In this document: positions 21,188-40,151 of the stretch, piece after piece
Layout: each line of letters begins with the position of its first letter
Position numbering within the stretch: the first letter of the stretch is position 1
Virus record (IMG/VR): IMGVR_UViG_3300033066_001354
Source of the DNA: an uncultured virus (IMG/VR IMGVR_UViG_3300033066_001354)
Taxonomy: Duplodnaviria > Heunggongvirae > Uroviricota > Caudoviricetes
DNA length: 40,580 nt
Reading direction: 5' to 3' (one strand)
Notes under the pieces: generated by a model
What the model saw: the letters and a program-made list of their open reading frames with translations, nothing else
Database searches by the model: none
Told to the model about the DNA's origin: nothing
Made by a program: the position numbers and the translations under genes

Positions 21188-21326
21188 CAACGTTTGTATA
21201 ACTGAAACGACACACGCCCCGACATAAACATCGGACGGACGAAGGCGCTAAAGAGAACATCACTCTTTGTCTTCGCGAGACATATCCGAGACAGACGGAC
21301 GTGAGCAGTCAAGAAAGGAAAAACAA

Positions 21327-26258: not shown

Positions 26259-26277
26259 GTGTTTATACGCGTGTCAG

Positions 26278-26989: not shown

Positions 26990-27032
26990 GATAAATATAT
27001 ACTGGCATAGGTGGGAAAGATGAGGAAAAATC

Positions 27033-27062
27033 CGTGCGCCCTTATTTGTCCAAGCATTAAAT
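27033..27062 (+). repeat. dif/cer-like 30-bp site 1
   Basis: CGTGCGCCCTT ATTTGTCC AAGCATTAAAT. Confidence 0.9.
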
Positions 27063-27065
27063 TAC

Positions 27066-27347
27066 AGACGACGGCGAAGGGCTTTTCTGCGCCGTCCGCC
27101 GTCGTGATACATTTATGTCGCTGTGAGCTTTGAGTCGGTCAGAGTCGCCTTTGACTCTTACGTTTTTGGTCGTAGGACGCTTTTTCGTTCGCGTCAGTTG
27201 TGTTCCTTGGACGGGTCGCGTATCCGTCTGTCGGTGTTTGCCGTTGTTTGAGATTAAAGGGGTTGCTCACAGTTTACGCTTTAGCTCGTCTTCATGGCAC
27301 CCCTCCTGTTTTCTGTCTTGCCTGTCCTCTCTGCGATTGTCCCGCAC
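27066..27347 (-). ncRNA. Candidate structured RNA (may include micro-ORFs)
   Basis: Own promoter; CTGTGAGC/GCTCACAG closing stem enclosing four short hairpins; terminal hairpin 27068-27105. Confidence 0.5.
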
Positions 27348-27435
27348 TCTTATATACGGGGTTCGTCCGTTGGTTTGAGGAATGAGCCGCTTGCGTCAGT
27401 CGAGTCCTTTGCTTTTCTTTCGTTTCGCGTCCCAT
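27292..27435 (-). CDS. Small basic hypothetical protein (47 aa)
   Basis: ATG 10 nt after GTATA box; reads through the next promoter. Confidence 0.45.
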   Translation of the reverse strand: MGRETKEKQRTRLTQAAHSSNQRTNPVYKSAGQSQRGQARQKTGGVP

Positions 27436-27531
27436 GACAGTATACGCCGCCAGGATTATGGCTTGAGGAAAATTTCCTGAAAACGGCTGTTTTCCCATTT
27501 AGGAAACATAGTAAAAACAGGAAACATTTCG

Positions 27532-27561
27532 CGTGCCCCCTTATTTGACCAAGCGTTAAAC
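27532..27561 (+). repeat. dif/cer-like 30-bp site 2
   Basis: CGTGCCCCCTT ATTTGACC AAGCGTTAAAC. Confidence 0.9.
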
Positions 27562-27586
27562 TCCAGGATTTTCACCCTGGAGTTTT
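27558..27586. terminator. Intrinsic terminator (bidirectional-type)
   Basis: AAACTCCAGG...CCTGGAGTTTT abutting site 2, downstream of the 27599-28078 gene. Confidence 0.7.
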
Positions 27587-27598
27587 AGGTCGAAAGCC

Positions 27599-28078
27599 CT
27601 AGCGGACTTCCAGGACGTTTTCGAGCGAGATTCCGAAGAACCGCACCTGTCCCTTTTCTTCAAGGTCTTCCTTTTCGACCTTTTTTGGCGATTCCGAAGC
27701 CATTAGAAACGGGGCAACGTCCTCTTTTTTGCACGGTTCTCCGCCCAGGTACCATTGTGCCTTGGGTTCGTTGCCAGTGGCGACCACGCAAAGGTACACC
27801 TTGCCGTTTTTTCCCTGCCAAAACTTGACGTTGCCGATTTTGAAAGCATGGTCAATATGCACAGGGAGTTCGGGCTCGTCGCGCATTCCGTCTTCGACGG
27901 CGTTCTTGACAGGAGCGCGGTTGGCATAGTCACAGAGAATGCCTTGCATGACCGATTCTTTTTCGATGACCGCTCCGTCGTAGGATTTGTAGGTCTTGGC
28001 TTCGCGTCGGACAAGGACTGTGAAAAACTGTCCTGGCTTCTTGTCTGCGAGTTGGCTGGCGATTGTTTGCGCGTCCAT
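27599..28078 (-). CDS. Hypothetical protein
   Basis: 159 aa; ATG 10 nt after GTATA. Confidence 0.8.
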   Translation of the reverse strand: MDAQTIASQLADKKPGQFFTVLVRREAKTYKSYDGAVIEKESVMQGILCDYANRAPVKNAVEDGMRDEPELPVHIDHAFKIGNVKFWQGKNGKVYLCVVATGNEPKAQWYLGGEPCKKEDVAPFLMASESPKKVEKEDLEEKGQVRFFGISLENVLEVR

Positions 28079-28114
28079 GAATATATACCTGTCTGGCTGA
28101 AAACTTTGAGGAAA

Positions 28115-28372
28115 ACTGAAGCGACCGTCTATCTAACTACCTGTCTGTGCCTACTGACTAGCTTTCAGCGCAGACAACCACTGACCTTACCTTACCAGAC
28201 CTAGCGTACTATCAAAAGTTTCGCCCTCCGAGCTTCAATTCACGAAGTCTATAGGTCACCTCGTCTCTCATCCAGTGTCTGCTGGAACCAAGACGGTCGC
28301 TTTTAGTCAGTCAAAGCTACCTTTCCTATCATCACCGCAAGCGGTGGTTACTCAGCGGGCTTCTCGACTGAC
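28115..28372 (-). ncRNA. Candidate ~255-nt highly structured RNA
   Basis: Predicted +1 coincides with the first base of a 5' stem GTCAGTC/GACTGAC; 12-bp long-range helix AAGCGACCGTCT/AGACGGTCGCTT (28291-28302 with 28119-28130); no minus-strand ORF in the track. Confidence 0.7.
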
Positions 28373-28407
28373 AATAGTATATTGTCATAGGCGGAAGTTT
28401 TGAGGAA

Positions 28408-28437
28408 GTTTAGGACTTGGGCAAATAAGGCGGCACG
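28408..28437 (-). repeat. dif/cer-like 30-bp site 3 (inverted)
   Basis: Reverse complement CGTGCCGCCTT ATTTGCCC AAGTCCTAAAC. Confidence 0.88.
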
Positions 28438-28494
28438 TCCCATGTTTCCTCAAAAGTGGACGCCAGACAAGTATAGTCCTGTCTGGCGTTTTTG

Positions 28495-28662
28495 TCACCG
28501 TCTTCCCATTCTTCGTTGCTTCTTGCTGAGGTGTTTTTGGGGAGGTCGGAACTTTTGCTGTCTGTCGCTCCGTTTGAGGTCTTCCATCATTTTGATGTCG
28601 CTGGGATTGATTCCGAGTCCGCCGAGCATTCCGAGTGTGAGCAAAAGTGTGTTCCTTGCCAT
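28495..28662 (-). CDS. Hypothetical 55-aa protein (not in ORF track)
   Basis: MARNTLLLTLGMLGGLGINP...KKQRRMGRR; ATG 10 nt after GTATA. Confidence 0.7.
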   Translation of the reverse strand: MARNTLLLTLGMLGGLGINPSDIKMMEDLKRSDRQQKFRPPQKHLSKKQRRMGRR

Positions 28663-28678
28663 GTCTATATACTAAATT

Positions 28679-28975
28679 TCAGGATGGTTTTGAGGATTTC
28701 GACGGGAGTTTTACTCCCTTCAGGTGTTTTTTTGCACAGTCTGCGCCAACTTCGTACATACTGTAAACATCTTCGTCGGCGTTTTTGTCAAAGTCCACAA
28801 TTTCGCCGTCAATATGGTTGAGCATCACACTGAGCGCAGTCTTTAGGTTGACTTCTCGACCACAACAAATGCAATAGTTCAACGGTGTTCCTATTTCCGT
28901 CCTTTTGTTCCACCCTGTCTTTTTGCGGACTTCTTGAAGTAGTCCAGTGTGTTCTTTCATGTCCGGGTAGTTCAT
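28679..28975 (-). CDS. Hypothetical zinc-binding protein
   Basis: CICCGR...VGADC. Confidence 0.7.
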   Translation of the reverse strand: MNYPDMKEHTGLLQEVRKKTGWNKRTEIGTPLNYCICCGREVNLKTALSVMLNHIDGEIVDFDKNADEDVYSMYEVGADCAKKHLKGVKLPSKSSKPS

Positions 28976-29130
28976 TTGAGCACCTTGGGCGGCGAGACTC
29001 CGATGACACCTTCAATATGGACGACATTGCCGCATTTTTTGCAGTCGAACAAAATTCCGTATCTCAAACCTCGCGGTTTTCCTTTCGGGACTTCTCTGAC
29101 TGCTGGTGCGCTACAGTGTGGGCATCGCAT
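28972..29130 (-). CDS. Zinc-ribbon micro-protein, 52 aa (not in ORF track)
   Basis: MRCPHC...DCKKCG; ATG 10 nt after GTATA. Confidence 0.7.
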   Translation of the reverse strand: MRCPHCSAPAVREVPKGKPRGLRYGILFDCKKCGNVVHIEGVIGVSPPKVLK

Positions 29131-29167
29131 GGATATATACGCCTCTCAGCGGGTAATTTGAGGATTC

Positions 29168-29608
29168 TTAGACGAACCCGTAGTTTTTGCGGAGTTTCTT
29201 TGCATCGACCCGTGCCATGAGGTCTTTCTTCGTCACGTCGTCAGACGCGTAGAAAGTCAGTCCGAACGCCGAACGGATATAACCAATCTCCCTTCCAGTT
29301 TCGAGGTATTTGACAGCAAAGCCATAAAGCGCGTCCTCTGCCTTTTTGTTGCAAGCGATGACGCAACGGGTCTCGCCGCCGTCTCTGTTGAGTTGGTCAA
29401 CAATCATCACGTCAGAACCAAGAAAGAGGACTCCCATCGGTGCTGTCGCTTTAGGATTGATGACTTTACTGGCGTCTTCAAGAGCCTCGTCCACTTTGGC
29501 GACGACTTCGTTATAGTCGTTAACCTGGTCGATGCTTCCGATGGACAGTCCCCAATTTCGGGCTTCGAGCAGAGCGTCGGCTAGTTTGGCTTCGAGAGCG
29601 GTAGGCAT
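29168..29608 (-). CDS. Hypothetical protein
   Basis: ATG 10 nt after GTATA. Confidence 0.8.
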   Translation of the reverse strand: MPTALEAKLADALLEARNWGLSIGSIDQVNDYNEVVAKVDEALEDASKVINPKATAPMGVLFLGSDVMIVDQLNRDGGETRCVIACNKKAEDALYGFAVKYLETGREIGYIRSAFGLTFYASDDVTKKDLMARVDAKKLRKNYGFV

Positions 29609-29648
29609 GTTTTTATACTCTGGTGGATGGAAAATTTGAGGAAAAATC

Positions 29649-29678
29649 TGTGCGCCCTTTTTTCACCAAGCGTTAAAT
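29649..29678 (+). repeat. dif/cer-like 30-bp site 4
   Basis: TGTGCGCCCTT TTTTCACC AAGCGTTAAAT. Confidence 0.88.
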
Positions 29679-29681
29679 TGC

Positions 29682-30029
29682 AAAAAAGAAGAAGCCCAGC
29701 GCCGTTTCTGACACTGGACTTCTCATAGCGCTTCGGGGCGACCGCATCCCTACAGTTTCCTCTGTTAACCTGTCCAAGCCTTCCCTCTACGGTGGAGTTC
29801 TTTTTAACGGCTATTGATACCAGGGTCTTTGAGGACTCCACTACTAAGCCACAGAGTCAGTTTGGTGGACTTCGCTTCGGTTACCAGCCTCTACCGCACT
29901 ATTGTGTGCGCTCTGTGGTGATTTTGTTTTCTGTCTTGAGGCTGTCCGAGTCCGTTTGGTAAGACTTCGCCAGGGTTACCAGTCCTGACCGCGATATCTC
30001 ACAATTTCGCGCTCTTCTTTCCTCTCTTC
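29682..30029 (-). ncRNA. Candidate ~350-nt RNA with tandem kissing-loop motif
   Basis: Promoter without a start codon at +1; two covarying units (29948-30015 and 29849-29918); ends in GAAGTCCAGTGTC/GGCGCTGGGCTTC hairpin plus U-tract. Confidence 0.75.
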
Positions 30030-30067
30030 TCCTATATACGCACCTTGTTCGGAGGTTTGAGGAAAAG

Positions 30068-30304
30068 TCAGTTGACTGTCTGGGCGTTCGGGTCGCGTCC
30101 GTTCACCATGAACAACTCATAAGCGAACAAGCGGGACTCTGGCAGTTCGCCTGTAGCCCACTGTTTGTACCTGTCAGACACGCCGTCCTTACGCTTCCAC
30201 ATTTTGCCGCCACAAAGGTAGTGATGACGAAGGGCGCGGTCTTTCTCAGCGTTGGTGTAGTAACGGGGAGTCTCATCAACTAGCTGGATGATTGCAGTAG
30301 GCAT
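30068..30304 (-). CDS. Hypothetical protein
   Basis: Promoter-linked leaderless ATG. Confidence 0.75.
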   Translation of the reverse strand: MPTAIIQLVDETPRYYTNAEKDRALRHHYLCGGKMWKRKDGVSDRYKQWATGELPESRLFAYELFMVNGRDPNAQTVN

Positions 30305-30308
30305 GAGT

Positions 30309-30578
30309 TTATATCAAGCTGTCTGGAGAATTTGAGGAAACGAAGTCGTGCAAGTGTTGCAACTGTAAAGACCTGTCCCGCTCTCTTATGTCTTTGACGA
30401 CTAAAAGCCTGTCCATTTCGTGCCAAGAAACCAAGTCCCAAAGAGTCTCCACTCTTGCCCATCTTTTGCCCTCAGTCTCCCATGTTGGGGTAGTGACATA
30501 TCGGACTACTCCGTAGAACTTTCCAGTGACTCCCCACTCTACGATGTTTCCAGCTTTTACTGGGTCATTATGCCGCAT
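30309..30578 (-). CDS. Hypothetical protein (SH3/KOW-like beta pattern)
   Basis: VKAGNIVEW...GVV; coupled to the upstream gene. Confidence 0.6.
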   Translation of the reverse strand: MRHNDPVKAGNIVEWGVTGKFYGVVRYVTTPTWETEGKRWARVETLWDLVSWHEMDRLLVVKDIRERDRSLQLQHLHDFVSSNSPDSLI

Positions 30579-30843
30579 CGTCAAGCTTCGCCCTTTCAAA
30601 CGCTTCCCAGGTTTCGACGTAGCCCTTGCCGTTCACCCAGATTTTGTCAAAATCGTAATCGTCGGCACAGACTTCAGTGACATTGTTGCCAGTCGTGTCC
30701 ACAGACTTTTCGATGGCTTTCACGACGGCGGTGATAATTTCGTCCAAGTGTGAGTGTTTACTGTCGTAAATCTTGAAGCCGTTGAAATAGACCGCATTGT
30801 AATCGCAGTCCCCACCGTTCACTACAATAATATCGTTAGCCAT
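30568..30843 (-). CDS. Hypothetical protein
   Basis: Promoter-linked leaderless ATG. Confidence 0.75.
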   Translation of the reverse strand: MANDIIVVNGGDCDYNAVYFNGFKIYDSKHSHLDEIITAVVKAIEKSVDTTGNNVTEVCADDYDFDKIWVNGKGYVETWEAFERAKLDDAA

Positions 30844-30883
30844 GATTTTATACTATACCACAATTAAGTCTTGAGGAAAAATC

Positions 30884-30913
30884 CGTGCGGCCTTATTTGT
30901 CCAAGCGTTAAAT
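30884..30913 (+). repeat. dif/cer-like 30-bp site 5
   Basis: CGTGCGGCCTT ATTTGTCC AAGCGTTAAAT. Confidence 0.9.
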
Positions 30914-30920
30914 TATAGAC

Positions 30921-30947
30921 AAAAAACGCCCCGCTTTTGGCGGGGCG
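30921..30947 (-). terminator. Intrinsic terminator
   Basis: CGCCCCGC/GCGGGGCG stem followed by T6 on the minus strand. Confidence 0.85.
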
Positions 30948-30976
30948 ACTGTCATAAGGAGACAGAACTAAAACTG

Positions 30977-31288
30977 TCAGTTGATTCCGTGCGTCTTACC
31001 TGTTCTGTCCGTCGCGCCTTTCGACTGTGTGCGGCGCGGAGGGTCGTCATCAAGCGGGAAGGCAGTTTTGAGTGCATGGACAAAACCCGCCCATAGAAGG
31101 ATAAAACCAAAGGCTCCCTCCACGATGTATATGGCGTAAATCATCCCTTTGCCGAGCCAGAGGAAGTTTCCGTTCGAGTCGTAAGAAAAGAACGGGTCTA
31201 ACACTTTCTGCGTCAGAACGAATGCGAGTGCGACCAAAGCCATCAAACCGACGAGCTTCAATCTGTCCTGGTTGGTTTTGCTAACCAT
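30977..31288 (-). CDS. Membrane protein (2 TM)
   Basis: Start re-assigned to the ATG 10 nt after GTATA; two hydrophobic helices. Confidence 0.75.
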   Translation of the reverse strand: MVSKTNQDRLKLVGLMALVALAFVLTQKVLDPFFSYDSNGNFLWLGKGMIYAIYIVEGAFGFILLWAGFVHALKTAFPLDDDPPRRTQSKGATDRTGKTHGIN

Positions 31289-31325
31289 GTATTTATACCG
31301 TCCTGTGTGGAAAACTTGAGGAAAT

Positions 31326-31595
31326 TCAGGAGAAGTACGCATATTCGACCCGGGCGGTAGTGACAGTGTGCCAGCCCATTGTCAGATAAATTTCGTAGTC
31401 GAACCCTTCGACTTGTTCGTGAATTCGTCCTTCGTGCCCGCAGTACATTCCATCAAGCGCTTTTGATACGTTCGGGTTGATTTTGGCAGCTTTGTCCAGC
31501 CATTCTTGCAATGGGACGTTAGCGCCGATGCCTGTCAATTCCCTGTTGAGACTGTTCAACAACGACCGTTTTGTCTGTCGTTTCGGATTGTCCAT
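31326..31595 (-). CDS. Hypothetical protein
   Basis: Promoter-linked leaderless ATG. Confidence 0.75.
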   Translation of the reverse strand: MDNPKRQTKRSLLNSLNRELTGIGANVPLQEWLDKAAKINPNVSKALDGMYCGHEGRIHEQVEGFDYEIYLTMGWHTVTTARVEYAYFS

Positions 31596-31599
31596 GAAT

Positions 31600-31884
31600 T
31601 TATACCAAATCGGCTAGAGACTTTGAGGATTCTAGCTTCATGGTTCGAACGTAGTAGCCTTCTCCAAGGTACTTAACGTCGTTCCAGGCCAAACCAGATT
31701 CTTCCGGGGTGTTTGACACCACGGAGGGGCAAACTTCAGTACCGTCCGCCAAACGATAGACGGCAAAATTGCGAACCTTGCCAGGGTCGAGGGCATCGTT
31801 CATCGTTTCATACTTTTCTGACTTCCAAAGGTGGAAGGTCTTGCACTCCATTTTGGCGCTTCGCCACCCAAGGTTAAGACTCAT
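31600..31884 (-). CDS. Hypothetical protein
   Basis: Start re-assigned to the ATG 13 nt after GTATA. Confidence 0.7.
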   Translation of the reverse strand: MSLNLGWRSAKMECKTFHLWKSEKYETMNDALDPGKVRNFAVYRLADGTEVCPSVVSNTPEESGLAWNDVKYLGEGYYVRTMKLESSKSLADLV

Positions 31885-31921
31885 GACACTTTTATACCCG
31901 ACAAGACGTGTTTTTGAGGAT

Positions 31922-32161
31922 TTAATCGTTGAACACCGTCGTCCAATCTTCCTCTTCCACAAAGGACAGGTTTTCGCCGTTGAAGTCTTTCAGCATCAAT
32001 TTCGCGATACCTTGGGCGACTTCGGGCGTGGAGAACAAAATAGTCCTGTCGTCATAGCCCTTGACTTTAACAGTCAGCATTCCTTTGGGCTCTGCGCCGA
32101 CATGGGTAACGTCAGCCACCATCACCGTCACGCCGTTTTTTGCAGTCTCGTTCAAAAGCAT
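31922..32161 (-). CDS. Hypothetical protein
   Basis: Promoter-linked leaderless ATG. Confidence 0.75.
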   Translation of the reverse strand: MLLNETAKNGVTVMVADVTHVGAEPKGMLTVKVKGYDDRTILFSTPEVAQGIAKLMLKDFNGENLSFVEEEDWTTVFND

Positions 32162-32195
32162 GTTTTTATACTCTCCTAGATGTTGAATTTGAGGA

Positions 32196-32411
32196 TTACT
32201 TCCCCGTAGCCTTGACGAAGTTGTCAGGTGTGCAAACTCCTGGCGTCCCGTATCGCCCGCCCATGTTCAAAGCCCAATGTCCAGGAGATTTGATGACAGC
32301 TTTACCACTTGCTTCTTTCCACTCTACACCGTTTCGCCCGCGCCCGTTCGGGACAAGGATTGTCACTCTGTCGCCAAACTTGATTTCGTTGAAACTTGCT
32401 CTGGTAGCCAT
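32196..32411 (-). CDS. Hypothetical protein
   Basis: Promoter-linked leaderless ATG. Confidence 0.75.
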   Translation of the reverse strand: MATRASFNEIKFGDRVTILVPNGRGRNGVEWKEASGKAVIKSPGHWALNMGGRYGTPGVCTPDNFVKATGK

Positions 32412-32446
32412 GACTATATACTGGTGTGGGTAAAAGTTTGAGGATT

Positions 32447-32677
32447 TTACGCCACAACTTTTCTGTCAGTCCAATAGCCAAGAATTGCCACAGGACACGG
32501 GATTTCGTCAATGATGGCGAATTTAGTACCATTACCGTCTCTGCCTCTGTTGACTGCCTCAAGGCTCTTTACCAATTCACGGGCTGTCTCTGGTGTGCCC
32601 ATGTGGTTCTGTATCCAACCGCCGCCCACGTTGCCGTTCTCGCGCACCCTGTCCACGTTGATGATGCTAAATTTCAC
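32447..32677 (-). CDS. Hypothetical protein
   Basis: GTG 10 nt after the GTATG box. Confidence 0.7.
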   Translation of the reverse strand: MKFSIINVDRVRENGNVGGGWIQNHMGTPETARELVKSLEAVNRGRDGNGTKFAIIDEIPCPVAILGYWTDRKVVA

Positions 32678-32687
32678 ACTTTCATAC

Positions 32688-33149
32688 TCAGACAGACGAA
32701 AGTTTTGAGGAAGATGAGAACAGCTTCCCTTTAGAAATGTCTTTGAACAATGCGGCTGGGTCTTCAATCGAAGTAGCACGGTTAAGGTGTCCGCTAGTGC
32801 CAGACAAGCGCACAATTTCATTTTCTTCTGTAAAGAGGTATGCATACTTGTTGGGTACGCCTGTGATGACTAGTGGCTGGTGCGTCTTAATTTGCAGTGT
32901 CTTGAGGTTAGGGTAATACTTCTGCAAACGTGGGAACAATTGGTGACACTCTATGCAATTAATCCAACGTTCTGGAAACACCAAGATTATTTCAGTCGTC
33001 TGGTCATCGACCTTTTGTTCCTTGAACAAATTGCGCAGGTATTTCTGCCCGACGAATTGCTCGTACTCAAAGTCGTCTGCCAAAAAATCTGGACGACGAT
33101 AGATGAACACTTCGCAACGCTCCAGTCCATCAAACCAACTTTCAGCCAT
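32688..33149 (-). CDS. Hypothetical protein (weak resemblance to the C-terminal half of an ABC-type ATPase)
   Basis: IILVFPERWI...IKTHQPLVI; promoter upstream. Confidence 0.65.
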   Translation of the reverse strand: MAESWFDGLERCEVFIYRRPDFLADDFEYEQFVGQKYLRNLFKEQKVDDQTTEIILVFPERWINCIECHQLFPRLQKYYPNLKTLQIKTHQPLVITGVPNKYAYLFTEENEIVRLSGTSGHLNRATSIEDPAALFKDISKGKLFSSSSKLSSV

Positions 33150-33191
33150 ATGCGTACATAACAAGCATGCATTGAGATATGAGGAAAAATC

Positions 33192-33221
33192 CGTACGGTC
33201 TTATTTGTCCAAGCACTAAAA
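33192..33221 (+). repeat. dif/cer-like 30-bp site 6
   Basis: CGTACGGTCTT ATTTGTCC AAGCACTAAAA. Confidence 0.85.
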
Positions 33222-33257
33222 AAGCAGACCGTTTCCAGTCTGCCTTTCGCCGTCCGC

Positions 33258-33404
33258 TTATCGCTTCGGAAGGTTGCCCGCGCCGTTGAAAATCGCGTCT
33301 GCCAAGTTTTGGTAGCTCAGTCGTCGCTTGTCTGCGAGGGTCATCTTTCGAGGTCGTTTGTTGGACTCTTGGTCTCTGTTGCGGATGGACTTAGGTTGTG
33401 CCAT
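33258..33404 (-). CDS. Basic 48-aa protein (not in ORF track)
   Basis: MAQPKSIRNRDQ...NLPKR; ATG 10 nt after GTATA; terminator 33218-33243 downstream. Confidence 0.7.
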   Translation of the reverse strand: MAQPKSIRNRDQESNKRPRKMTLADKRRLSYQNLADAIFNGAGNLPKR

Positions 33405-33423
33405 GAACATATACACTTTTGAC

Positions 33424-33870
33424 TCACACGGTTGAGGAATTTTTGGGCGCGTATGTCCAGCCGCCGTTGCCGTAAGGCACCCAACCCTTAAGCCGTCCCA
33501 TCTTCATACTGACGACTTCAATCAACCTGGCGTCTGGGTGGTCGCGGTGTGGTGTGCCGTCTATCGGACACTTGCGATAGTTAGCCTTTGGTAAAGTTTC
33601 ATTGTGTTCGTTGTCAAAGTATTCGTACACCAGGGTACACCCTATGTTTGACCCGCACGACGTTGTGACGATGAAGACTTCGCCGCTTTCTAAGTAAAAC
33701 CGAAGCCGACAGTCCCCGCGCTTCAAACGTCGCATTGTAACTTTGACGCCGAAGAACTCTTGCATGACTTTAGACAAAAGTTCACAAGTCGATGGCACAT
33801 AGTTATAGATGCCTTCATAAGTAAAGTCTGTCGGGTATGTCCTGTATATAGGGTCGTTGACTGATGCCAT
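33424..33870 (-). CDS. Hypothetical protein
   Basis: Start re-assigned to the ATG 10 nt after GTATA (MASVNDP...). Confidence 0.75.
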   Translation of the reverse strand: MASVNDPIYRTYPTDFTYEGIYNYVPSTCELLSKVMQEFFGVKVTMRRLKRGDCRLRFYLESGEVFIVTTSCGSNIGCTLVYEYFDNEHNETLPKANYRKCPIDGTPHRDHPDARLIEVVSMKMGRLKGWVPYGNGGWTYAPKNSSTV

Positions 33871-33968
33871 GCGTCTATACCCAGCGCCGACAAAGCAATG
33901 AGGAATTTGACCACTTTTATACGCAGCGGCAGCAGCGGTTTGAGGATTTTCGCTGCACAAATTTTTCG

Positions 33969-33998
33969 CGTGCCCCCTTATTTCCCCAAGCCTTAATC
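33969..33998 (+). repeat. dif/cer-like 30-bp site 7
   Basis: CGTGCCCCCTT ATTTCCCC AAGCCTTAATC. Confidence 0.88.
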
Positions 33999-34023
33999 CC
34001 CGTGGCGAACGGGGTGGCTTGCG

Positions 34024-34308
34024 TCACTGACTAAGGAACTGCTGGGCTTCTGCGCCGAGTTGTTGCATTTCGGAGTAAAAGCGTTGTTGCATGTCCCCTA
34101 GTTTGTCCTGTTCCTGTGGGATTCGGCACTCCAAAGACTCAATTTCCTCTTTTTGCGAATCTGTAGGATTACTGAGTTTGTGAAGGTCGTCCAACACTTC
34201 TTGCATACCCAGGACAGTGGAGACTTGAGCATTGAGTCTCACCTCGCGCTCTTTCGCTTCGTTGTCCAAGATTACTTGTGCGACTTGACAGAGATACGTC
34301 GTAGCCAT
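34024..34308 (-). CDS. Coiled-coil hypothetical protein
   Basis: Start re-assigned (MATTYLC...) by promoter position. Confidence 0.7.
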   Translation of the reverse strand: MATTYLCQVAQVILDNEAKEREVRLNAQVSTVLGMQEVLDDLHKLSNPTDSQKEEIESLECRIPQEQDKLGDMQQRFYSEMQQLGAEAQQFLSQ

Positions 34309-34401
34309 GTTCATATATAGACACTGTTCCACAATTTGAGGAAAATCTGTCAGTGTGGATTGTAAATTCCTCATATCAAGCATGATTGGCAGTATATGGA
34401 C

Positions 34402-35055
34402 ATGGTTAACACCATCGAGGGCGATTGGAGCGACGTTGCTTGGCTTACAGTCAGTCAGAACCCAGTCCCTGTCAGCAAAAGCGTCGAATTCCCGGAACAG
34501 CCAGACGGAATGACTTATGGCGAATACCATAAGTTGCATAAAATTTGCACATACCTTGACCCGAACGGCAAACGAAGCGGCTTGCGTTGTGTCGCGTTCT
34601 ACCCTTACGAACACCTGACGGTAGGCGGGGCGTTGCGAATCATGATGTTCCACTTTCCCGATGAGTCGTACTATAACGAGCTTTCAATGGCGTTTATGGC
34701 GCGGCATTGCACGGGCTATGGCGATGCTGGGTTGATGCCCACCCTGGAAGAAGTCAAGAACGGCATTCACAGGGCCTTAAATCCGCCTGTATTCACTCCG
34801 AGGCGCATTATAGCGCAACGTTGTGTCAGAAGCGGTGATTTTCGCGTAGTCATATGGAAGAAGCCAGACGACCCCAAATTCCCACACATCAAACTGGAGG
34901 GGCGTGAATTGTTGCTACTGCCTAAGAAGGCGTTCGGAGTGGAAGAAGAAGGCGAATACCTGTACATCTTTGACGAAACAGACAGCAAAAACGACAGAAT
35001 CACCGAAGTCAAGGATAAATTGGAACGCGGGGTTATTGTACTGAAATACGCTTAA
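34402..35055 (+). CDS. Hypothetical protein
   Basis: Divergent promoter at 34368; ATG 10 nt after GTATA. Confidence 0.75.
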   Translation: MVNTIEGDWSDVAWLTVSQNPVPVSKSVEFPEQPDGMTYGEYHKLHKICTYLDPNGKRSGLRCVAFYPYEHLTVGGALRIMMFHFPDESYYNELSMAFMARHCTGYGDAGLMPTLEEVKNGIHRALNPPVFTPRRIIAQRCVRSGDFRVVIWKKPDDPKFPHIKLEGRELLLLPKKAFGVEEEGEYLYIFDETDSKNDRITEVKDKLERGVIVLKYA

Positions 35056-35065
35056 GCGTATTTCA
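35042..35065. terminator. Perfect 24-bp palindrome over a stop codon (terminator or binding site)
   Basis: TGAAATACGCTTAAGCGTATTTCA. Confidence 0.55.
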
Positions 35066-35082
35066 ATTTGTGGAACATGGGG

Positions 35083-35112
35083 CGTGCCGCCTTATTCTCC
35101 CAAGTCTTATTC
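35083..35112 (+). repeat. dif/cer-like 30-bp site 8
   Basis: CGTGCCGCCTT ATTCTCCC AAGTCTTATTC. Confidence 0.85.
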
Positions 35113-35162
35113 ACACAGGTAAAAATCCTCAAACTTAGCCGGTGATAGGGTATATATCTGTT

Positions 35163-36047
35163 ATGGCGGCAAAGCAGACAGCATACGAAGCAATCACAGC
35201 GACCATCATTGCAGCCCTTGAAGCTGGCGAAGTGGCTTGGCAGAAGCCCTGGAATTCGAAAGCGCCGTGCAACGCAATCACAGGCAAAGCCTACCGTGGC
35301 GTCAATCCGTTTTTGCTCGTCCTTGCGTCAAAGTCGTACACTGACAATCGCTGGTTGACGTTCCCACAAGCTAAAGAACTAGGCGGAAGTGTCAAGTCGG
35401 GCGAAAAGGGAACTTGGATTGTCTACTCATCCCAAATCCCTACCAAAGAAGACCCTAAAAAGTCGTTTTGGCTTATGAGGCGGTACTGTGTTTTCAACAT
35501 CGAACAGTGCGAAAACTTGGAGAAACTTCCGCCGCTTGAAGTCGTCAACCAAGACACTGACCCGAACATTCTAGCCGAAGAATTGGTGGCTAAGTACACA
35601 GACGCGCCGCCCGTGACCTTTGGTGGCGGCATAGCTTGCTACCGACCTTCAACCGATGAAGTGAACATGCCCAACCGCGCCGACTTCAACGGAAACCCAG
35701 AATTTTATTCAACATTGTTCCATGAGTTCGCACATTCTACAGGACATGAGAAACGACTCAACCGAAAGTCACTCACGGAACATGACGGGTTTGGAGGGTA
35801 CAACTACTCTAACGAAGAGTTGGTGGCGGAGTTCGCCGCCGCGTTCATGATGGCAGAATGTGGTATGGACATGCCTGTCAAAGACAATACCGTAGCCTAC
35901 CTGCAAAGTTGGATAAAAGCCTTGAAGAACGACCCGACACTAGTGGTCAAAGCGGCAAGTGCGGCACAAAAGGCGGCTGATTACATGAAGGGCGTGACGG
36001 TCGCCAAGGACGCCGAAGATACCGAGAAAGAAACGGTTGCGGCATAG
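35163..36047 (+). CDS. ardC: ArdC-family antirestriction / ssDNA-binding protein with zincin-like domain
   Basis: WQKPW, N.ITGKAYRGVN, WLTFPQA..LGGSVKSGEKG, VFNIEQ, HEFAHSTGH...RLNR, EELVAE, YLQSWI. Confidence 0.92.
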   Translation: MAAKQTAYEAITATIIAALEAGEVAWQKPWNSKAPCNAITGKAYRGVNPFLLVLASKSYTDNRWLTFPQAKELGGSVKSGEKGTWIVYSSQIPTKEDPKKSFWLMRRYCVFNIEQCENLEKLPPLEVVNQDTDPNILAEELVAKYTDAPPVTFGGGIACYRPSTDEVNMPNRADFNGNPEFYSTLFHEFAHSTGHEKRLNRKSLTEHDGFGGYNYSNEELVAEFAAAFMMAECGMDMPVKDNTVAYLQSWIKALKNDPTLVVKAASAAQKAADYMKGVTVAKDAEDTEKETVAA

Positions 36048-36054
36048 TCAAAAA

Positions 36055-36078
36055 AATCCCAGGCTTCGGTCTGGGATT
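36055..36078. terminator. Intrinsic terminator after ardC
   Basis: AATCCCAGGC-TTCG-GTCTGGGATT hairpin. Confidence 0.75.
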
Positions 36079-36144
36079 AAGACTTGGGAGAATAAGGATG
36101 CACGCAAAATTCCTCAAACATCTCACCGGCATGAGTACATATCT

Positions 36145-36522
36145 ATGAGCGCAACGCTTTATCTGGCAGACGGCACAAAGCAAGAAATCGTGCCTGCCAA
36201 CGGGACGGACTTCAAAGCGGACGAGTTGTACAAGCTTTTGGGCTGTGACACTCTTGAGGTGATTGATACGGGCGACCCTGTGATGATTATGATTGGTGAC
36301 GAGAATTCGCGCCTGGACGACGAGTGTGTCATCAACATGGAGGCTACGCGCATCTACCGCGAAGGTCATGGCATCTTGGGCGACCCTTGGAAGCACAAAG
36401 AAGCCGCTTTAGCACGCATGAAGGAAATGTACGGGGATGCTTTTATCGACTGCTCAGACGGTGGAGAGCCTTACACAATCGTCGGCAACATCGTGTACTG
36501 TCCAACTGGGATGCTAAAGTAG
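36145..36522 (+). CDS. DUF3846-like phage protein
   Basis: ELYKLLGCDTLEVI...IGDENSRL...NMEAT...IVGNIVYC; start set by promoter. Confidence 0.65.
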   Translation: MSATLYLADGTKQEIVPANGTDFKADELYKLLGCDTLEVIDTGDPVMIMIGDENSRLDDECVINMEATRIYREGHGILGDPWKHKEAALARMKEMYGDAFIDCSDGGEPYTIVGNIVYCPTGMLK

Positions 36523-36561
36523 TTTCCTCAAACAATTTGCCAAGGGGAGTACATAAACAAC

Positions 36562-36774
36562 ATGATTTACTTCGTGACAACCAGCGGTGTCGAACACAAC
36601 ACGCACATTCATTGCCCCTGCCCTGTCAAACCCGAAGAAGTGGAAGAAGTGCAGGCAGACGGTGACGAGCTTGAGTACATCAGGAACGAAATGAACGGCA
36701 TCCCCATGTCACGCGGGCGAGTCGTCCGATGGTTCGGTGACTTCGCCAAATTCATCGCCGCCAACTGGGACTGA
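36562..36774 (+). CDS. Hypothetical protein
   Basis: ATG 13 nt after GTACA box; hairpin CCGCACA/TGTGCGG 36781-36797 downstream. Confidence 0.75.
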   Translation: MIYFVTTSGVEHNTHIHCPCPVKPEEVEEVQADGDELEYIRNEMNGIPMSRGRVVRWFGDFAKFIAANWD

Positions 36775-36821
36775 AAACAGCCGCACATTTTGTGCGGTTT
36801 CGTTTTGAGGAAAAGTCAGAC

Positions 36822-36851
36822 CGTGCCCCCTTATTTCTCCAAGCGTTAAAA
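36822..36851 (+). repeat. dif/cer-like 30-bp site 9
   Basis: CGTGCCCCCTT ATTTCTCC AAGCGTTAAAA. Confidence 0.9.
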
Positions 36852-36877
36852 GCCCGGGCTTTTAACCCAGGCTTTTT
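36848..36877. terminator. Intrinsic terminator (bidirectional-type)
   Basis: AAAAGCCCGGG...CCCAGGCTTTTT abutting site 9. Confidence 0.7.
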
Positions 36878-36879
36878 GC

Positions 36880-37107
36880 TTACGCCGTGACTTTACAAAT
36901 CCACGCCTCTTGTGCCACTCGGTCGCGGAAAAAGTGGTTCTCGTTCACAGTTTGTAAAAGGGCGAGGTTTGTGACGAAGAACGAGGGTTCAAAACCGAAA
37001 GCCTTGAGATACTCTGCCAAGACCTTATTGTCGTCCGAAGTGTCGAAGCAGGGATGCTCTGCGTCCTGCATCATTTGAATCATGGCGGCTTTTGTTGCGG
37101 CGTCCAT
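36880..37107 (-). CDS. Hypothetical protein
   Basis: Promoter-linked leaderless ATG. Confidence 0.75.
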   Translation of the reverse strand: MDAATKAAMIQMMQDAEHPCFDTSDDNKVLAEYLKAFGFEPSFFVTNLALLQTVNENHFFRDRVAQEAWICKVTA

Positions 37108-37143
37108 GTGTATGTACTGACACTGGTAAAAGTTTTGAGGAAT

Positions 37144-37581
37144 CTAGCTTATCACTCTGACGGACTTGAACGGTGCGCCCATGACAGCCTCACCGCCTCT
37201 TGAGGCGCGAGTCTTGAGTTCAAGGTGGCATGGCACCCATCCAGTGCTTTTGCCGACGACAAAACGCCTGCGCTCGTCCCACTTGTCCACAACCTCGACG
37301 TGCTTTCCTTCCAAGCCGACAAGTTGGGATGTCAACTCTGTCGGACACTTTTCGCCAGTAGCTTCAAACCTGACCCTGCAAAGTTGGACGAGTTCTTGGA
37401 ACCTGTCATATCCCTGCGTGGTTCCCCAATACGACGAGTTTGGAGGCTCGACACCAAGCCATTCAGCCATCTTCACCGAACGCTCTTGACACACGTCGAA
37501 ACCCAAACAAGTGTATCCAGCATCAAACCCGATGACGAACAAATTGCGAGTGTTGTCAAGGGTGATAGTGTTTTTGCCCAT
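37144..37581 (-). CDS. Hypothetical protein
   Basis: Start re-assigned (MGKNT...); LVGLEG...RRFVVGKSTGWVPCHLE...SRGG. Confidence 0.75.
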   Translation of the reverse strand: MGKNTITLDNTRNLFVIGFDAGYTCLGFDVCQERSVKMAEWLGVEPPNSSYWGTTQGYDRFQELVQLCRVRFEATGEKCPTELTSQLVGLEGKHVEVVDKWDERRRFVVGKSTGWVPCHLELKTRASRGGEAVMGAPFKSVRVIS

Positions 37582-37615
37582 GTATGTATACCTTTTCAAC
37601 CGACCAATTTGAGGA

Positions 37616-37846
37616 TTATGGCACAATCAACGACGTGACATCAATGGGGGTTTTGGTCTTATAGTCCAGGACTGTCGCGACCGGACGACTATTGTCATGA
37701 GACGACACTAGATGACATTCCATGCCAGACACCATAATCGTCCTACCGAGAGGAGACATGTCGGTAGAGAGTATCTTGGTCTCCTCGATTCGTCCGTTTG
37801 GATGTTGCAGACATACGTGCAAACAGGGATTAAAGTAATGGCTCAC
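37616..37846 (-). CDS. Hypothetical protein
   Basis: GTG 12 nt after GTATA. Confidence 0.65.
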   Translation of the reverse strand: MSHYFNPCLHVCLQHPNGRIEETKILSTDMSPLGRTIMVSGMECHLVSSHDNSRPVATVLDYKTKTPIDVTSLIVP

Positions 37847-37995
37847 GGTTTTTTATACACGTGCCATTTTTTTATTTGAGGAAGATAGCTAATTGCCGTC
37901 CTCACCAGGTATAAATGCAAAAAAGTCAAAAAAGTATCGGAGACAGCCTTATTTTTTGGCGTTCTCAGTGGCATATATACATGTAGGGCAAAACA

Positions 37996-38409
37996 ATGAC
38001 TTGGTACTCGGGAAATCTTCGGAAACTCTATCACAAAGAGTTCGGCATTCCAACAGCGGCCGAAACTGTCGTAGGCAAATTGCCTTTGGAATATTCACAG
38101 CACGCGCTTCACGCTGCTCAAGACGACAGATACGGGAACATCATCAATTTACCGAGAATACTCGATACTTCCAAGGCTCAGGTGATTGAAGTAGAGATGG
38201 AGGGCGACCGTACCACTAAAGTCCTTTACAGAGTCCCTTACAACGATACACACGATTTAGTCCTCGCTGTCATGCCTGACGGGTTTGTGAAGACTGTCTG
38301 GCTAAACGCCCATGATGATTTACACAACACGCTTGATGCTTCACGTTACGAAATTCTAAATCCTCCAGCCGAGGAGATTCAGCCAGAGGAAGCAGAACAG
38401 GTCGCCTAG
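37996..38409 (+). CDS. Hypothetical protein, possible RelE/BECR-like fold
   Basis: YSQHAL...DLVLAV...VKTVW pattern. Confidence 0.55.
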   Translation: MTWYSGNLRKLYHKEFGIPTAAETVVGKLPLEYSQHALHAAQDDRYGNIINLPRILDTSKAQVIEVEMEGDRTTKVLYRVPYNDTHDLVLAVMPDGFVKTVWLNAHDDLHNTLDASRYEILNPPAEEIQPEEAEQVA

Positions 38410-38594
38410 TCGTCCCAGTCGCCGTACTTGGCTCTGCGCTCTTCTCGGCGTTTCTGTGAGCGGGAGTACGAATCGTCCTGTTTGTGAACCTCGTTCCGAA
38501 AATGGCGTTGGTCAGAGCCGCTTCGAGTCGAGAAAAGTCCAGGGTTGCGGTCGCGGAGTTCTTTGCCGCGCTTGGTCATTCGCTTTTGTTTCAT
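38406..38594 (-). CDS. Small basic hypothetical protein
   Basis: ATG 13 nt after ATATA box. Confidence 0.65.
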   Translation of the reverse strand: MKQKRMTKRGKELRDRNPGLFSTRSGSDQRHFRNEVHKQDDSYSRSQKRREERRAKYGDWDD

Positions 38595-38644
38595 GACACT
38601 ATTATATCCTTGTCGAACGTGTTTGTGAGGAATTTTCCTTCACG

Positions 38645-38995
38645 TCAGTCGATTTTTCCGTAATGTTCAGTGAAGTTGAGGCTTGCTTTGCTGTCTCGTA
38701 GATGAATCAACACCTCTTCCTTCAATGCTTTCACCATTTCTGACGGAATTTTGATTCCCTTGGATTCATTGGCGTGAAGATATTTTTCCACCTTCTCGAC
38801 TGCAATGTCCACTCCGTTCAAGCCGTAATCAGCGACACTCCAGTTGTTCATAATGGAGTCGAAACCGGGCGCTTCGTCTGTTTCTTCGTCTTCTGGCTCG
38901 TCTTTCAACAACACTTGTGCGAACACATATGACAATGGTCGGTCAACGCCGATGCAAACGGTGTATTTTTCGGTCTCTGCTGTGTGCCGTGACAT
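38645..38995 (-). CDS. Hypothetical protein
   Basis: Promoter-linked leaderless ATG. Confidence 0.75.
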   Translation of the reverse strand: MSRHTAETEKYTVCIGVDRPLSYVFAQVLLKDEPEDEETDEAPGFDSIMNNWSVADYGLNGVDIAVEKVEKYLHANESKGIKIPSEMVKALKEEVLIHLRDSKASLNFTEHYGKID

Positions 38996-39014
38996 GTGTA
39001 TATACCTGTCTGTG

Positions 39015-39338
39015 TCAAAAATTTGAGGAATTTTGCTCTGCTTCCAGCAAATGCTTTGTCGAAATCAGTTCCTTAATTCTGTTTTCACGAGACAGCTTCC
39101 ACGCGTCAAGGTCTTCTAACGCTTTTTCATAAGCGTCTGCGCGTTTGTCGTAATAGTCTTTATTCCAATGCGAGGAATAACAGGAAGTCACCTTGTCGGT
39201 GTCGCGGTCAGAAAACTTCATGACATGAGACAGTTTTTCATCATAACCAATGAACACCAGCTTAGAAATTGATTCTGGTGCGCCGTCGAGCCCGCGCTCT
39301 ATCTTCCAAAACTTTTGACCAATGGTAGGATTGACCAT
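39015..39338 (-). CDS. Hypothetical protein
   Basis: Start re-assigned (MVNPT...) by promoter position. Confidence 0.7.
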   Translation of the reverse strand: MVNPTIGQKFWKIERGLDGAPESISKLVFIGYDEKLSHVMKFSDRDTDKVTSCYSSHWNKDYYDKRADAYEKALEDLDAWKLSRENRIKELISTKHLLEAEQNSSNF

Positions 39339-39390
39339 AACGACATACTTGACACCGCTTGAAATTTGAGGATATCCGATAGAGCGCGGC

Positions 39391-39420
39391 GGGCAGACCT
39401 TATTGTACCAAGTGTTAAAT
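39391..39420 (+). repeat. dif/cer-like 30-bp site 10 (left arm degenerate)
   Basis: GGGCAGACCTT ATTGTACC AAGTGTTAAAT, between divergent promoters. Confidence 0.7.
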
Positions 39421-39457
39421 TTCCTCATTTAACCTAGCTGTCAGGTATATATCTATC

Positions 39458-39751
39458 ATGGTGAAAGTTTATCAAGTCAAGGATTTCGCAATGACTTTTT
39501 GCGCCACTCCTGCGCCAGAACCCTCAAACCTTGTCCTTGTGGCAGAGATTGATGGCGATTTGAACGACGCCTATCATCTGACTCAGAACATCGAAGAGTC
39601 ATGGGCTCAGAACACTGACTCAAAAGTCAAGGCAAAATGCGATGAGTGTCGCTCTACGTCCGTGGGCGACGTAATGGAGAAAGACGGCGTTTTCTACGTC
39701 GTGGCTTCGTTCGGTTTTGACGTGCTGGAAGGTTATTCGGTGACAGCATGA
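39458..39751 (+). CDS. YodL-like phage protein, tentative
   Basis: AYHLTQN...RSTSVGDV...YVVASFGF pattern. Confidence 0.55.
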   Translation: MVKVYQVKDFAMTFCATPAPEPSNLVLVAEIDGDLNDAYHLTQNIEESWAQNTDSKVKAKCDECRSTSVGDVMEKDGVFYVVASFGFDVLEGYSVTA

Positions 39752-40029
39752 CCATCGAACAGATTTGTCTTACAGTGACTGGCAAACCTGTTGGGACGTA
39801 CATTGACAACGGGTTTTATTGCGTCACGTCCGCCCAAGCTACCAAACTGTGCGGAGGCAAACTGCCAAAACCAGGGTATGAAAAAGCCATGATGATTCAA
39901 GACGGCAAGCCAGCGCCCTCGTTCTCTCTCGGCACCGACCAGTACAAAATCTCAAGGACATACGTCAAACACAGGACGGACATTCTAGTAGGCGACCATT
40001 GGTCGATACGGTTGGTTGGCACGCAGTAA
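39748..40029 (+). CDS. Hypothetical protein
   Basis: ATGA-coupled; followed by ACGCAG/CTGCGT hairpin and T-tract (40021-40045). Confidence 0.65.
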   Translation: MTIEQICLTVTGKPVGTYIDNGFYCVTSAQATKLCGGKLPKPGYEKAMMIQDGKPAPSFSLGTDQYKISRTYVKHRTDILVGDHWSIRLVGTQ

Positions 40030-40059
40030 ACGCTGCGTGTTTTTTGGATGTGACTAGGG

Positions 40060-40089
40060 CGTGCCGCCTTATTCCCCCAAGCCTTAAAT
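40060..40089 (+). repeat. dif/cer-like 30-bp site 11
   Basis: CGTGCCGCCTT ATTCCCCC AAGCCTTAAAT. Confidence 0.9.
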
Positions 40090-40096
40090 TTGACGC

Positions 40097-40129
40097 AAAA
40101 AGACGGCGGGACTTTTTGTCCCGCCGTCT
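40097..40129 (-). terminator. Intrinsic terminator
   Basis: AGACGGCGGGAC/GTCCCGCCGTCT 12-bp stem with T-tract on the minus strand. Confidence 0.85.
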
Positions 40130-40151
40130 GGCTTTTGGTCGTGGTCGCTGT

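Follow-up and report, generated by a model that had tools for sequence, protein, structure and literature searches.

Copies of the 30-bp Element

The DNA stretch analyzed in this study, hereafter the window, comprises 40,580 nucleotides (nt) of an uncultured virus of the Caudoviricetes (IMG/VR record IMGVR_UViG_3300033066_001354). Its portion to the right of 26 kb contains small orphan genes and a gene for an ArdC-like anti-restriction protein, and between the genes of this portion lies a repeated element of 30 base pairs (bp), designated S. An earlier note on this DNA had listed 11 copies of S and proposed that they were dif-like sites for site-specific recombination. With up to three mismatches, the consensus of that note matched nine positions (27033, 27532, 28408 on the opposite strand, 29649, 30884, 33969, 35083, 36822, and 40060), for a chance expectation of 0 and no match in 100 dinucleotide-preserving shuffles. 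The two other copies, at 33192 and 39391, were also present and were more degenerate than these nine. A weight matrix built from the 11 listed copies scored them at 28.0–47.6 bits and revealed an additional twelfth copy, in opposite orientation, at 36075–36104 (31.7 bits). To the left of 27033, no match of at least 18 bits was found, in agreement with the reported lack of copies in the left 27 kb.

All 12 copies were intergenic on the map of open reading frames (ORFs), as the note had held. The copy at 36075 falls within a mechanically listed ORF (36037–36522), yet it lies 5' of the likely start of that ORF, ATG 36145. The description of ten of the 11 copies as direct repeats remained largely correct, with a ratio of 10 to 2 once the twelfth copy was counted, and the orientation of S followed the direction of transcription. 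Because most genes between 26 and 40.5 kb are on the minus strand, S was read on that strand. On the gene strand, its sequence is ATTTAAGRCTTGG-N3-AATAAGG-N2-GCACG. The ArdC-like gene (35163–36047) is flanked by an inverted pair of S copies, 35083–35112 on the minus strand and 36075–36104 on the plus strand, both of the unusual form GA[AT]TAAGACTTGGGAGAATAAGG.

Core Signals and Cassette Anatomy

Most S copies of the window were preceded by a hairpin and followed by a box, a TATAWA element, and an ATG (Table 1). In gene orientation, the cassette consists of a hairpin, S, typically 7 nt, (T)TTCCTCAA, 18 nt, TATAWA, 3 or 6 nt, and the ATG of the next gene. The hairpin upstream of S was usually G+C-rich, and in some copies its T-run extended into the first bases of S.

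The box and the TATAWA element together are referred to as the core signal, which was searched for with the pattern CCTCA[ATC]-N16-19-TA.A..-N0-8-start codon. The window contained 32 core signals, compared with 0.73 expected from 100 block shuffles, in which the maximum was 3. Moreover, an open frame of 40 codons or more lay behind 27 of them, compared with 0.09 in shuffles. A spacer of 18 nt was present in 25 of the 32, and the gap between the TATAWA element and the start codon was 3 nt in 22 of the 32. Similar to S, core signals were concentrated to the right of 26 kb (29 of 32). They also occurred without S, before most of the small genes of this region, and those that carried S, about one third, were the ones after a terminator-like hairpin. 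Nearly every small gene to the right of 26 kb thereby appears to possess its own start signal set against its ATG. In addition, S and core signals also headed intervals without an ORF, at 27468 and 28405 in the window, as well as a tRNA-like RNA in a relative.

Two such intervals on the minus strand, 27063–27530 and 28095–28405, are approximately 300–470 nt long and have a core signal at their start, a hairpin at their end and no convincing ORF. Parts of the second one (28123–28203 and 28259–28301) were 78–84% identical to a related metagenomic contig, which is above the identities of neighboring genes. The predicted RNA fold of 28095–28375 had a z-score of -0.71, which does not support a structure, and no Rfam match was found in 27040–28480 at E ≤ 1. 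Both intervals are possibly non-coding RNAs.

Table 1. Positions of S copies, core signals, terminator-like hairpins, and genes named by family scans in the window.
Feature	Position	Strand	Context
S	27033–27062	minus	hairpin upstream; CCTCAT-N18-TATATA-N6-ATG of gene 26615–26989 begins 7 nt downstream
S	27532–27561	minus	hairpin upstream; next core signal ~64 nt downstream (27468), heading a mostly non-coding interval
S	28408–28437	plus (opposite orientation)	between leftward core signal 28405 (without ORF) and rightward CCTCAA box
S	29649–29678	minus	putative terminator 29724–29689 upstream; core signal 29641 and ATG 29608 (gene 29168–29608) downstream
S	30884–30913	minus	putative terminator 30947–30927 upstream; core signal 30876 and ATG 30843 downstream
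S, degenerate, 37.2 bits	33192–33221	minus	hairpin with T-run upstream; CCTCAT box 7 nt downstream; orthologue at 22602 of OFRM01000049.1
S	33969–33998	minus	hairpin upstream; tandem core signals 33945 and 33903 downstream
S, flipped relative to adjoining core signal	35083–35112	minus	core signal 35127 (plus), ATG 35163, ArdC-like gene
S, twelfth copy	36075–36104	plus	after hairpin 36055–36078 behind ArdC-like gene; before core signal 36112 and ATG 36145
S, convergent junction	36822–36851	minus	hairpin upstream; CCTCAA box 11 nt downstream, then putative two-way terminator, no gene
S, most degenerate, 28.0 bits	39391–39420	minus	between divergent core signals, 39423 (plus, ATG 39458) and leftward CCTCAA-N18-TATGTC
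S, convergent junction	40060–40089	minus	between putative terminator 40129–40101 and putative plus-strand terminator 40018–40041; no core signal downstream
Array of 29 core signals	26258–39460		most adjoin the start codon of a small gene directly; about one third with S
Terminator-like hairpin, example preceding S	30927–30947	minus	consensus scan
Other terminator-like hairpins directly upstream of S	40101–40129, 29689–29724, 36055–36078		consensus scan
Fic/DOC domain gene	12–638		auxiliary cluster
Phosphoribosyltransferase gene	1793–2428		auxiliary cluster
HAD domain of RNA-repair proteins	2386–2946		auxiliary cluster
C-N hydrolase gene	3423–4310		auxiliary cluster
UDP-glucose dehydrogenase gene	4415–5710		auxiliary cluster
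Tyrosyl-tRNA synthetase gene	8423–9661		auxiliary cluster
Major head protein gene	21267–22286	plus	

Conservation in Metagenomic Relatives

Neither a megablast search with positions 27000–40580 against isolated phages nor a blastn search with one cassette against phages gave a match. A blastn search against plasmids gave four weak matches, which covered the hairpin part of the query only and not S. In IMG/VR viral contigs, a strict S pattern had no match, and a looser one had nine single matches, which were taken as chance. Searches of viral contigs for related loci with a 469-amino-acid protein and with the capsid protein returned no usable locus. In contrast to the strict pattern in viral contigs, a scan of metagenomes with the S pattern found at least 140 stretches, of which most were single chance matches and several were contigs with multiple copies. 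Among the metagenome matches listed, and counting all sources, 83 copies scored at least 22 bits. After eight single copies in unrelated contigs were dropped, the family consisted of 75 copies, distributed over 12 contigs with genes or cassette context in common with the window. In 21.3 kb of the contig OFRM01000049.1, hereafter the OFRM contig, there are 24 copies, split 18 to six between the strands.

The anatomy seen in the window recurred in this family. A [C/A]CTCA box was found 3–16 nt downstream of S in 58 of the 75 copies, 50 of which had it at 6–7 nt, and the pattern was complete to the start codon in 40. When both sides of S were considered, 63 of the 75 copies had a box. The 39 nt upstream of S folded at a mean of -10.7 kcal/mol, compared with -4.5 kcal/mol for shuffled sequences, and -8 kcal/mol or lower was reached in 46 of 74 copies. 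In 16 of the 75 copies, an inverted box lay upstream and no hairpin partner lay downstream. S was next to a box in either orientation, at 35083, 28408, and 39391 in the window and in relatives, which fits a site bound by a factor better than a core element recognized by a polymerase. In six loci of ERZ761597 contigs (L096, L116, L117, L121, L122, and L002), the box was ACTCAT(AG) instead of CCTCAA(A), accounting for eight of the 58 boxes, while S and TATATAATCATG were unchanged. The box variant may co-vary with a phage-specific reader.

Comparison of S with Recombination Sites

The proposal of the earlier note was that S is a site-specific recombination site of the Xer/dif, cer or pdif type, or in a related version an attC-like site, so that host XerCD or a phage tyrosine recombinase would move the intervals between copies. 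S is indeed 30 bp long and can be parsed as 11-8-11. The complementarity between its arms averaged 5.1 of 11 positions (2.6 ± 1.4 in shuffled sequences), and the outer ends that were matched to dif, GTGCGC and GTTAAAT, do occur in a few window copies. These letters, however, sit in variable columns: GTTAAAT requires C at column 7, which was found in nine of the 75 family copies, and GTGCGC requires GC at columns 24–25, which was found in seven. Thus, the dif likeness rests on non-conserved letters of a few window copies. Dyad symmetry was otherwise weak, with CTT/AAG the only triplet that was symmetric in all 75 copies.

Variation was also not concentrated in the 8-bp center as the note had described. 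Only three of the eight central positions vary and five are invariant, so that S has no free spacer of 6–8 bp, and two positions in each supposed arm and the outer end vary too. The variable gaps within S are columns 7–8, 14–16, and 24–25. Neither long-range covariation nor internal pairing within S was found among the 75 copies. Two other assignments of S were rejected by inspection. The sigma-54 consensus has a GG-to-GC spacing of 10, whereas in S the GG and the conserved GC are spaced by 12, with variable positions following the GG. Similarly, no -10-like hexamer lies 16–18 nt from TTGG for a sigma-70 reading.

In pdif sites, two 11-bp arms with inner ATAA/TTAT enclose a free spacer of 6 bp (11-6-11); their modules are bounded by alternating, inversely oriented sites, and crossovers occur within sites and require identical spacers (PMC13141974). 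Similar to pdif sites, S copies are numerous short sites of similar length between small accessory modules whose content varies among relatives. Different from pdif sites, S showed none of these features: inner ATAA/TTAT is absent, a free spacer is lacking, the orientation does not alternate inversely and crossovers within the site were not seen. Instead, the orientation tracks transcription, with ratios of 10 to 2 (window) and 18 to 6 (OFRM contig). The fixed distance of 6–7 nt to the promoter-like box in 50 of 75 copies would also be needless for recombination.

The attC sites of integrons are imperfect palindromes that fold, lie beside an intI gene, and separate mostly promoterless cassettes. 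Although S shares with them the direct-repeat geometry between small gene units, it is not palindromic, each unit has its own promoter-like signal, and no integrase was found in the available DNA. Specifically, no recombinase or integrase family matched any of the 74 window ORFs scanned against PHROGs or the 67 scanned against Pfam, as the note had observed for the window, or any of the 25 ORFs in the 21-kb stretch of the OFRM contig, these being the stretches that the search covered. A search for a matching dif in 185,579 species genomes gave four single matches in unrelated taxa, none of them with cassette context, and no candidate host dif.

Rearrangements between Relatives

The window and the OFRM contig share approximately 20 genes with protein identities of 28–73%. 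Between 40.5 and 30 kb, their genes follow largely the same order, except for unit-sized insertions, one gene that was moved and inverted, and one swapped pair. S bounds units that differ, and some of the differences look like S-X-S versus S. For instance, the order is ArdC-S-gene in the window and ArdC-S-extra gene-S-gene in the OFRM contig. In addition, the window has a two-gene plus-strand block between the S copies at 40060 and 39391 where the OFRM contig has a single S. At one further junction, the OFRM contig has two S copies and the window has none, which is not predicted by insertion that depends on the site. The inverted ArdC block with its flanking S copies is also present in the OFRM contig, with S at 20453 (plus), 19450 (minus), 18339 (minus), and 17847 (plus).

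Among cross-contig pairs, homology was one-sided at S in 29 and two-sided in nine; some of the 29 share only the type of hairpin. Five events were read at base level, between the OFRM contig and short contigs that are 77–95% identical to it. The first is a 69-bp indel that deletes most of one S, with TTGCA(C) microhomology at its ends, including the 3' end of S. The second is the loss of one small gene between two core promoters, which left a hybrid promoter behind, and the third is a 157-nt unit, inserted or lost, that is bounded by the repeated box ttcctcaaac. The fourth is a 220-bp indel between the 3' flank of S and the next box, which carries a tRNA-like RNA. In the fifth, a terminator-like hairpin with a direct S is replaced by a core signal, approximately 240 nt of non-coding DNA and an inverted S. 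Thus, the boundaries were the repeated core-promoter box in three events, TTGCA(C) microhomology in one and a replacement in one.

None of the five events crossed over in the center of S, and we infer from this that the breakpoint pattern is the signature of homologous or microhomology recombination among repeated regulatory sequences and not of a site-specific enzyme. Most likely, the gene gains and losses among related phages at these signals come about when repeats recombine in the ordinary way, without a dif/Xer-type enzyme. The modules of the earlier note are therefore upheld as self-contained transcription units that vary, with gain, loss, inversion, and reordering at or next to the cassettes; its Xer/dif, cer, pdif or integron mechanism and the breakpoints expected in the center of S are not. 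We regard the idea that S is a recombination site as highly improbable. With it, a tempting false lead is removed, namely a resemblance to dif that is carried by few letters.

Contigs of four public runs from two studies, one of which may be the source of the window itself, were collinear with the window, and one contig of 9,207 bases spans seven S copies. No hybrid junction was counted in the contigs of these four runs, a result of little power since assembled contigs drop rare forms and circles and since uncovered parts are uninformative. The four joints listed were not counted as junctions because only 20–28 letters fitted on their shorter side and they come from motif-only matches of co-sampled relatives.

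The RNA-like element of the fourth event is 130 nt long and lies at 24805–24934 of the OFRM contig (L055:5196–5325), flanked by an S copy and the core signal that comes next. Its features are an acceptor-like stem of 9 bp and a T arm of canonical appearance (GGTTCGATTCC), with a fold z-score of -3.99. It was not called by ARAGORN, which called no tRNA gene in the window and 10 loci. In the close relative L075, the whole 220-bp unit with this element is absent. No Rfam family matched the window or five loci of the OFRM contig at gathering scores.

Probable Role of S as Upstream Element of a Terminator-Promoter Cassette

The anatomy of the cassette, its statistics, its conservation in relatives, and the positions of the breakpoints were established directly. 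Given that the distance from S to the box is fixed, that S is used in either orientation, that it also precedes non-coding units, and that it is confined to the orphan-rich region, S is probably the conserved upstream element of a repeated composite terminator-promoter cassette and not a recombinase site. The full cassette would consist of the terminator hairpin of the preceding unit, S, 6–7 nt, a (T)TCCTCAA box, 17–18 nt, TATAWA, usually 3 nt, and ATG. Box and TATAWA would form a core promoter, which would also stand alone before most small genes, whereas S would be located at roughly -40 to -70 of the class of promoters that opens a unit after a terminator. There, a sequence-specific protein bound to S could assist or control the recruitment of polymerase. 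Candidates for this reader would be a transcription factor of phage or host origin and a subunit of the polymerase, with S acting in the manner of an UP element or activator site. Since they are repeated dozens of times, the cassettes could also serve as substrates for homologous and microhomology recombination, by which small genes would be added, removed, and reordered between related phages.

With the core signal set directly against the start codon, the transcripts probably have no leader or almost none. A Shine-Dalgarno-like tetramer preceded 15 of 52 other ORFs of at least 80 amino acids and five of 26 core-signal genes, with ORF calls and starts that are rough; this contrast is weak support for leaderless starts and was not relied on. 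The restriction of S to the orphan-rich region, including the anti-restriction gene, is consistent with early expression, and an orphan-rich region with an ArdC-like gene would fit an early, hyperplastic region.

Several observations weigh against this reading. Promoter activity, start sites, terminators, early timing, and protein binding to S are all predictions made from sequence. Retrieval of the relatives required an exact match at columns 9–13, 17–23, and 26–29 of S, so that the invariance of these columns is partly by construction. Twelve of the 75 S copies have no box on either side within the narrow range searched. In relatives, many hairpins are preceded by an A-run and lack a T-run behind them, and they look like better terminators of the opposite strand. 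Sigma-70-like sites were not enriched in a consensus scan of the window (16 vs. 11.4 ± 3.4 in shuffles), and a TATAWA only 3 nt from ATG is out of register for the usual sigma-70 -10 element. Finally, the copies at 36822 (46.3 bits) and 40060 (45.4 bits) are among the best conserved, and they lie at convergent junctions without a downstream gene; the former has a box without TATAWA and the latter has neither. The equivalent of the copy at 36822 is retained in the OFRM contig at 17847. A pure upstream promoter element is expected to decay at such junctions, and a promoter role leaves the retention unexplained. The misregister of the -10 element, the copies at convergent junctions and the hairpins with A-runs keep two other explanations alive.

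In one of them, S would be a promoter in its own right, used by a second polymerase or sigma factor, for example a phage-encoded one, and standing in tandem with CCTCAA/TATAWA, which would allow the same genes to be transcribed in two phases of infection. Like the promoters of phage-encoded polymerases, S is long and highly conserved, it is strictly co-oriented with transcription in most copies, and it is kept without core TATAWA at 36822 and 40060. The 55–64-nt stretch from S to the next box, which in the window (27463–27573) is 73% identical to that of the OFRM contig, could be a transcribed leader. On the other hand, S is flipped beside the box in several copies (35083 and relatives), its three variable gaps fit a binding site with multiple contacts better than a compact polymerase promoter, and a transcript from S would have a leader of approximately 45 nt without a ribosome-binding motif. 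The family scans found no polymerase or sigma gene in the window, most of the genome being outside of it. Overall, a second promoter is unlikely.

The other explanation is that S is part of the stop signal, either as the site of a bound protein that acts as a roadblock or insulator and makes weak, U-poor hairpins terminate, or as a nut-like RNA signal. The hairpins of -8 kcal/mol or lower, whose stem often reaches the first two bases of S, the many hairpins of relatives without a T-run, and the persistence of S at convergent junctions with a terminator-like hairpin and no gene to drive would all fit such a role. S is, however, tied more to the box (63 of 75) than to the hairpin (47 of 73), and 15 copies without a hairpin adjoin an inverted box. 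Moreover, the distance from S to the box is fixed while the hairpins vary in sequence and length, and the lack of covariation within S gives no hint of an RNA structure. A role of S in termination is thus quite unlikely, and more so than a second promoter.

Beyond the upstream-element role of S in a terminator-promoter cassette, S might be the recognition site of a dedicated protein, encoded elsewhere in a large genome, that organizes early transcription and promotes the exchange of units between co-infecting relatives. We consider this very improbable; if true, the array would be a true cassette-exchange system and not the result of passive recombination between repeats. A milder form is likelier, in which S, the box and a TATAWA 3 nt from ATG would constitute a new class of promoter in a phage G-related lineage, read by a polymerase or factor specific to the phage.

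Gene Content and Lineage of the Phage

Family scans named a Fic-domain protein, a phosphoribosyltransferase, an RNA-repair-type HAD domain, a C-N hydrolase, a UDP-glucose dehydrogenase, a tyrosyl-tRNA synthetase, a major head protein, an HNH endonuclease, and the ArdC-like anti-restriction protein in the window. Most of the remaining ORFs were orphans in the PHROGs and Pfam scans, in which no T4-like hallmark gene was seen in the window either. The best match of the head protein was gp27 of Bacillus phage G (34.1% identity over 72% of the length, E 2e-37), followed by proteins of an uncultured 485-kb phage and of a 309-kb Tunturiibacter phage. Because its head protein is nearest to those of phage G and very large uncultured phages, the window is probably part of a large uncultured phage. 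A search for homologues of the capsid protein in a protein database found only two relatives, and the lineage is sparsely sampled.

In the left 26 kb, gene starts on the minus strand at 14498, 16531, 20015, and 23516 often have TATAAT or TATACT 7–13 nt before the ATG, some with TGn ahead of it and none with a CCTCAA box. These starts possibly represent a second class of promoters.

Comparison with Known Systems

Early promoters of T4 have a conserved block upstream of -35 at a fixed distance, which is common to one temporal class. Similar to such extended early promoters of large lytic phages with UP-like or activator elements, S is a block at a fixed distance upstream in one class of promoter-like signals. 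Different from them, S is not simply AT-rich, has the invariant blocks CTTGG, AATAAGG, and GCAC, and can lie flipped.

If the reading of S as an upstream element in a terminator-promoter cassette is correct, this study provides, for large phages of an uncultured lineage, a promoter grammar that can be tested and that consists of a terminator hairpin, a 30-bp upstream element, a CCTCAA box, and a TATAWA against the ATG. Such a grammar would permit calling of gene starts and transcription units in orphan-rich regions where homology is uninformative. Experiments would be most worthwhile on the reader of S and on the unusual register in which the core signal lies.

The closest known system is that of the promoter-early stem-loops (PeSLs) of T4-type phages, of which the S cassette would be a functional analogue. 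PeSLs are composite cassettes of an early promoter and a stem-loop that are repeated approximately 50 times, are concentrated before orphan genes in hyperplastic regions, and mediate modular shuffling and formation of mini-circles (PMC2839356, Arbiol et al., 2010; PMC4122927, Comeau et al., 2014). They also have an AT-rich upstream region and a Shine-Dalgarno sequence at their end (PMC2839356).

Both systems repeat, some tens of times, a short composite in which a stem-loop terminator is joined to a strong promoter, both activities being predicted from sequence here. Both are clustered in regions of small orphan genes and usually lie right before such genes, as do all 12 S copies and 29 of the 32 core signals to the right of 26 kb. 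In both, relatives differ by insertions, deletions, and replacements that end in the cassettes through recombination between repeats, here apparently at the box in three of five events and by microhomology in one of five.

Four differences are also seen. PeSLs are carried by T4-type phages, and the capsid protein here is nearest to that of Bacillus phage G (34.1%). The PeSL promoter follows the sigma-70 consensus of the host, whereas the core signal here is CCTCAA-N18-TATAWA, with no enrichment of sigma-70-like sites. In place of the AT-rich tract of PeSLs, the S cassette has a 30-bp, G+C-containing, highly conserved upstream element. Finally, PeSLs end with a Shine-Dalgarno sequence, whereas the core signal here abuts the ATG without one. 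Thus, the S cassettes would extend the idea behind PeSLs, that repeated regulatory cassettes are seams for gene shuffling, to a phage group and a type of promoter outside the T4-like phages.

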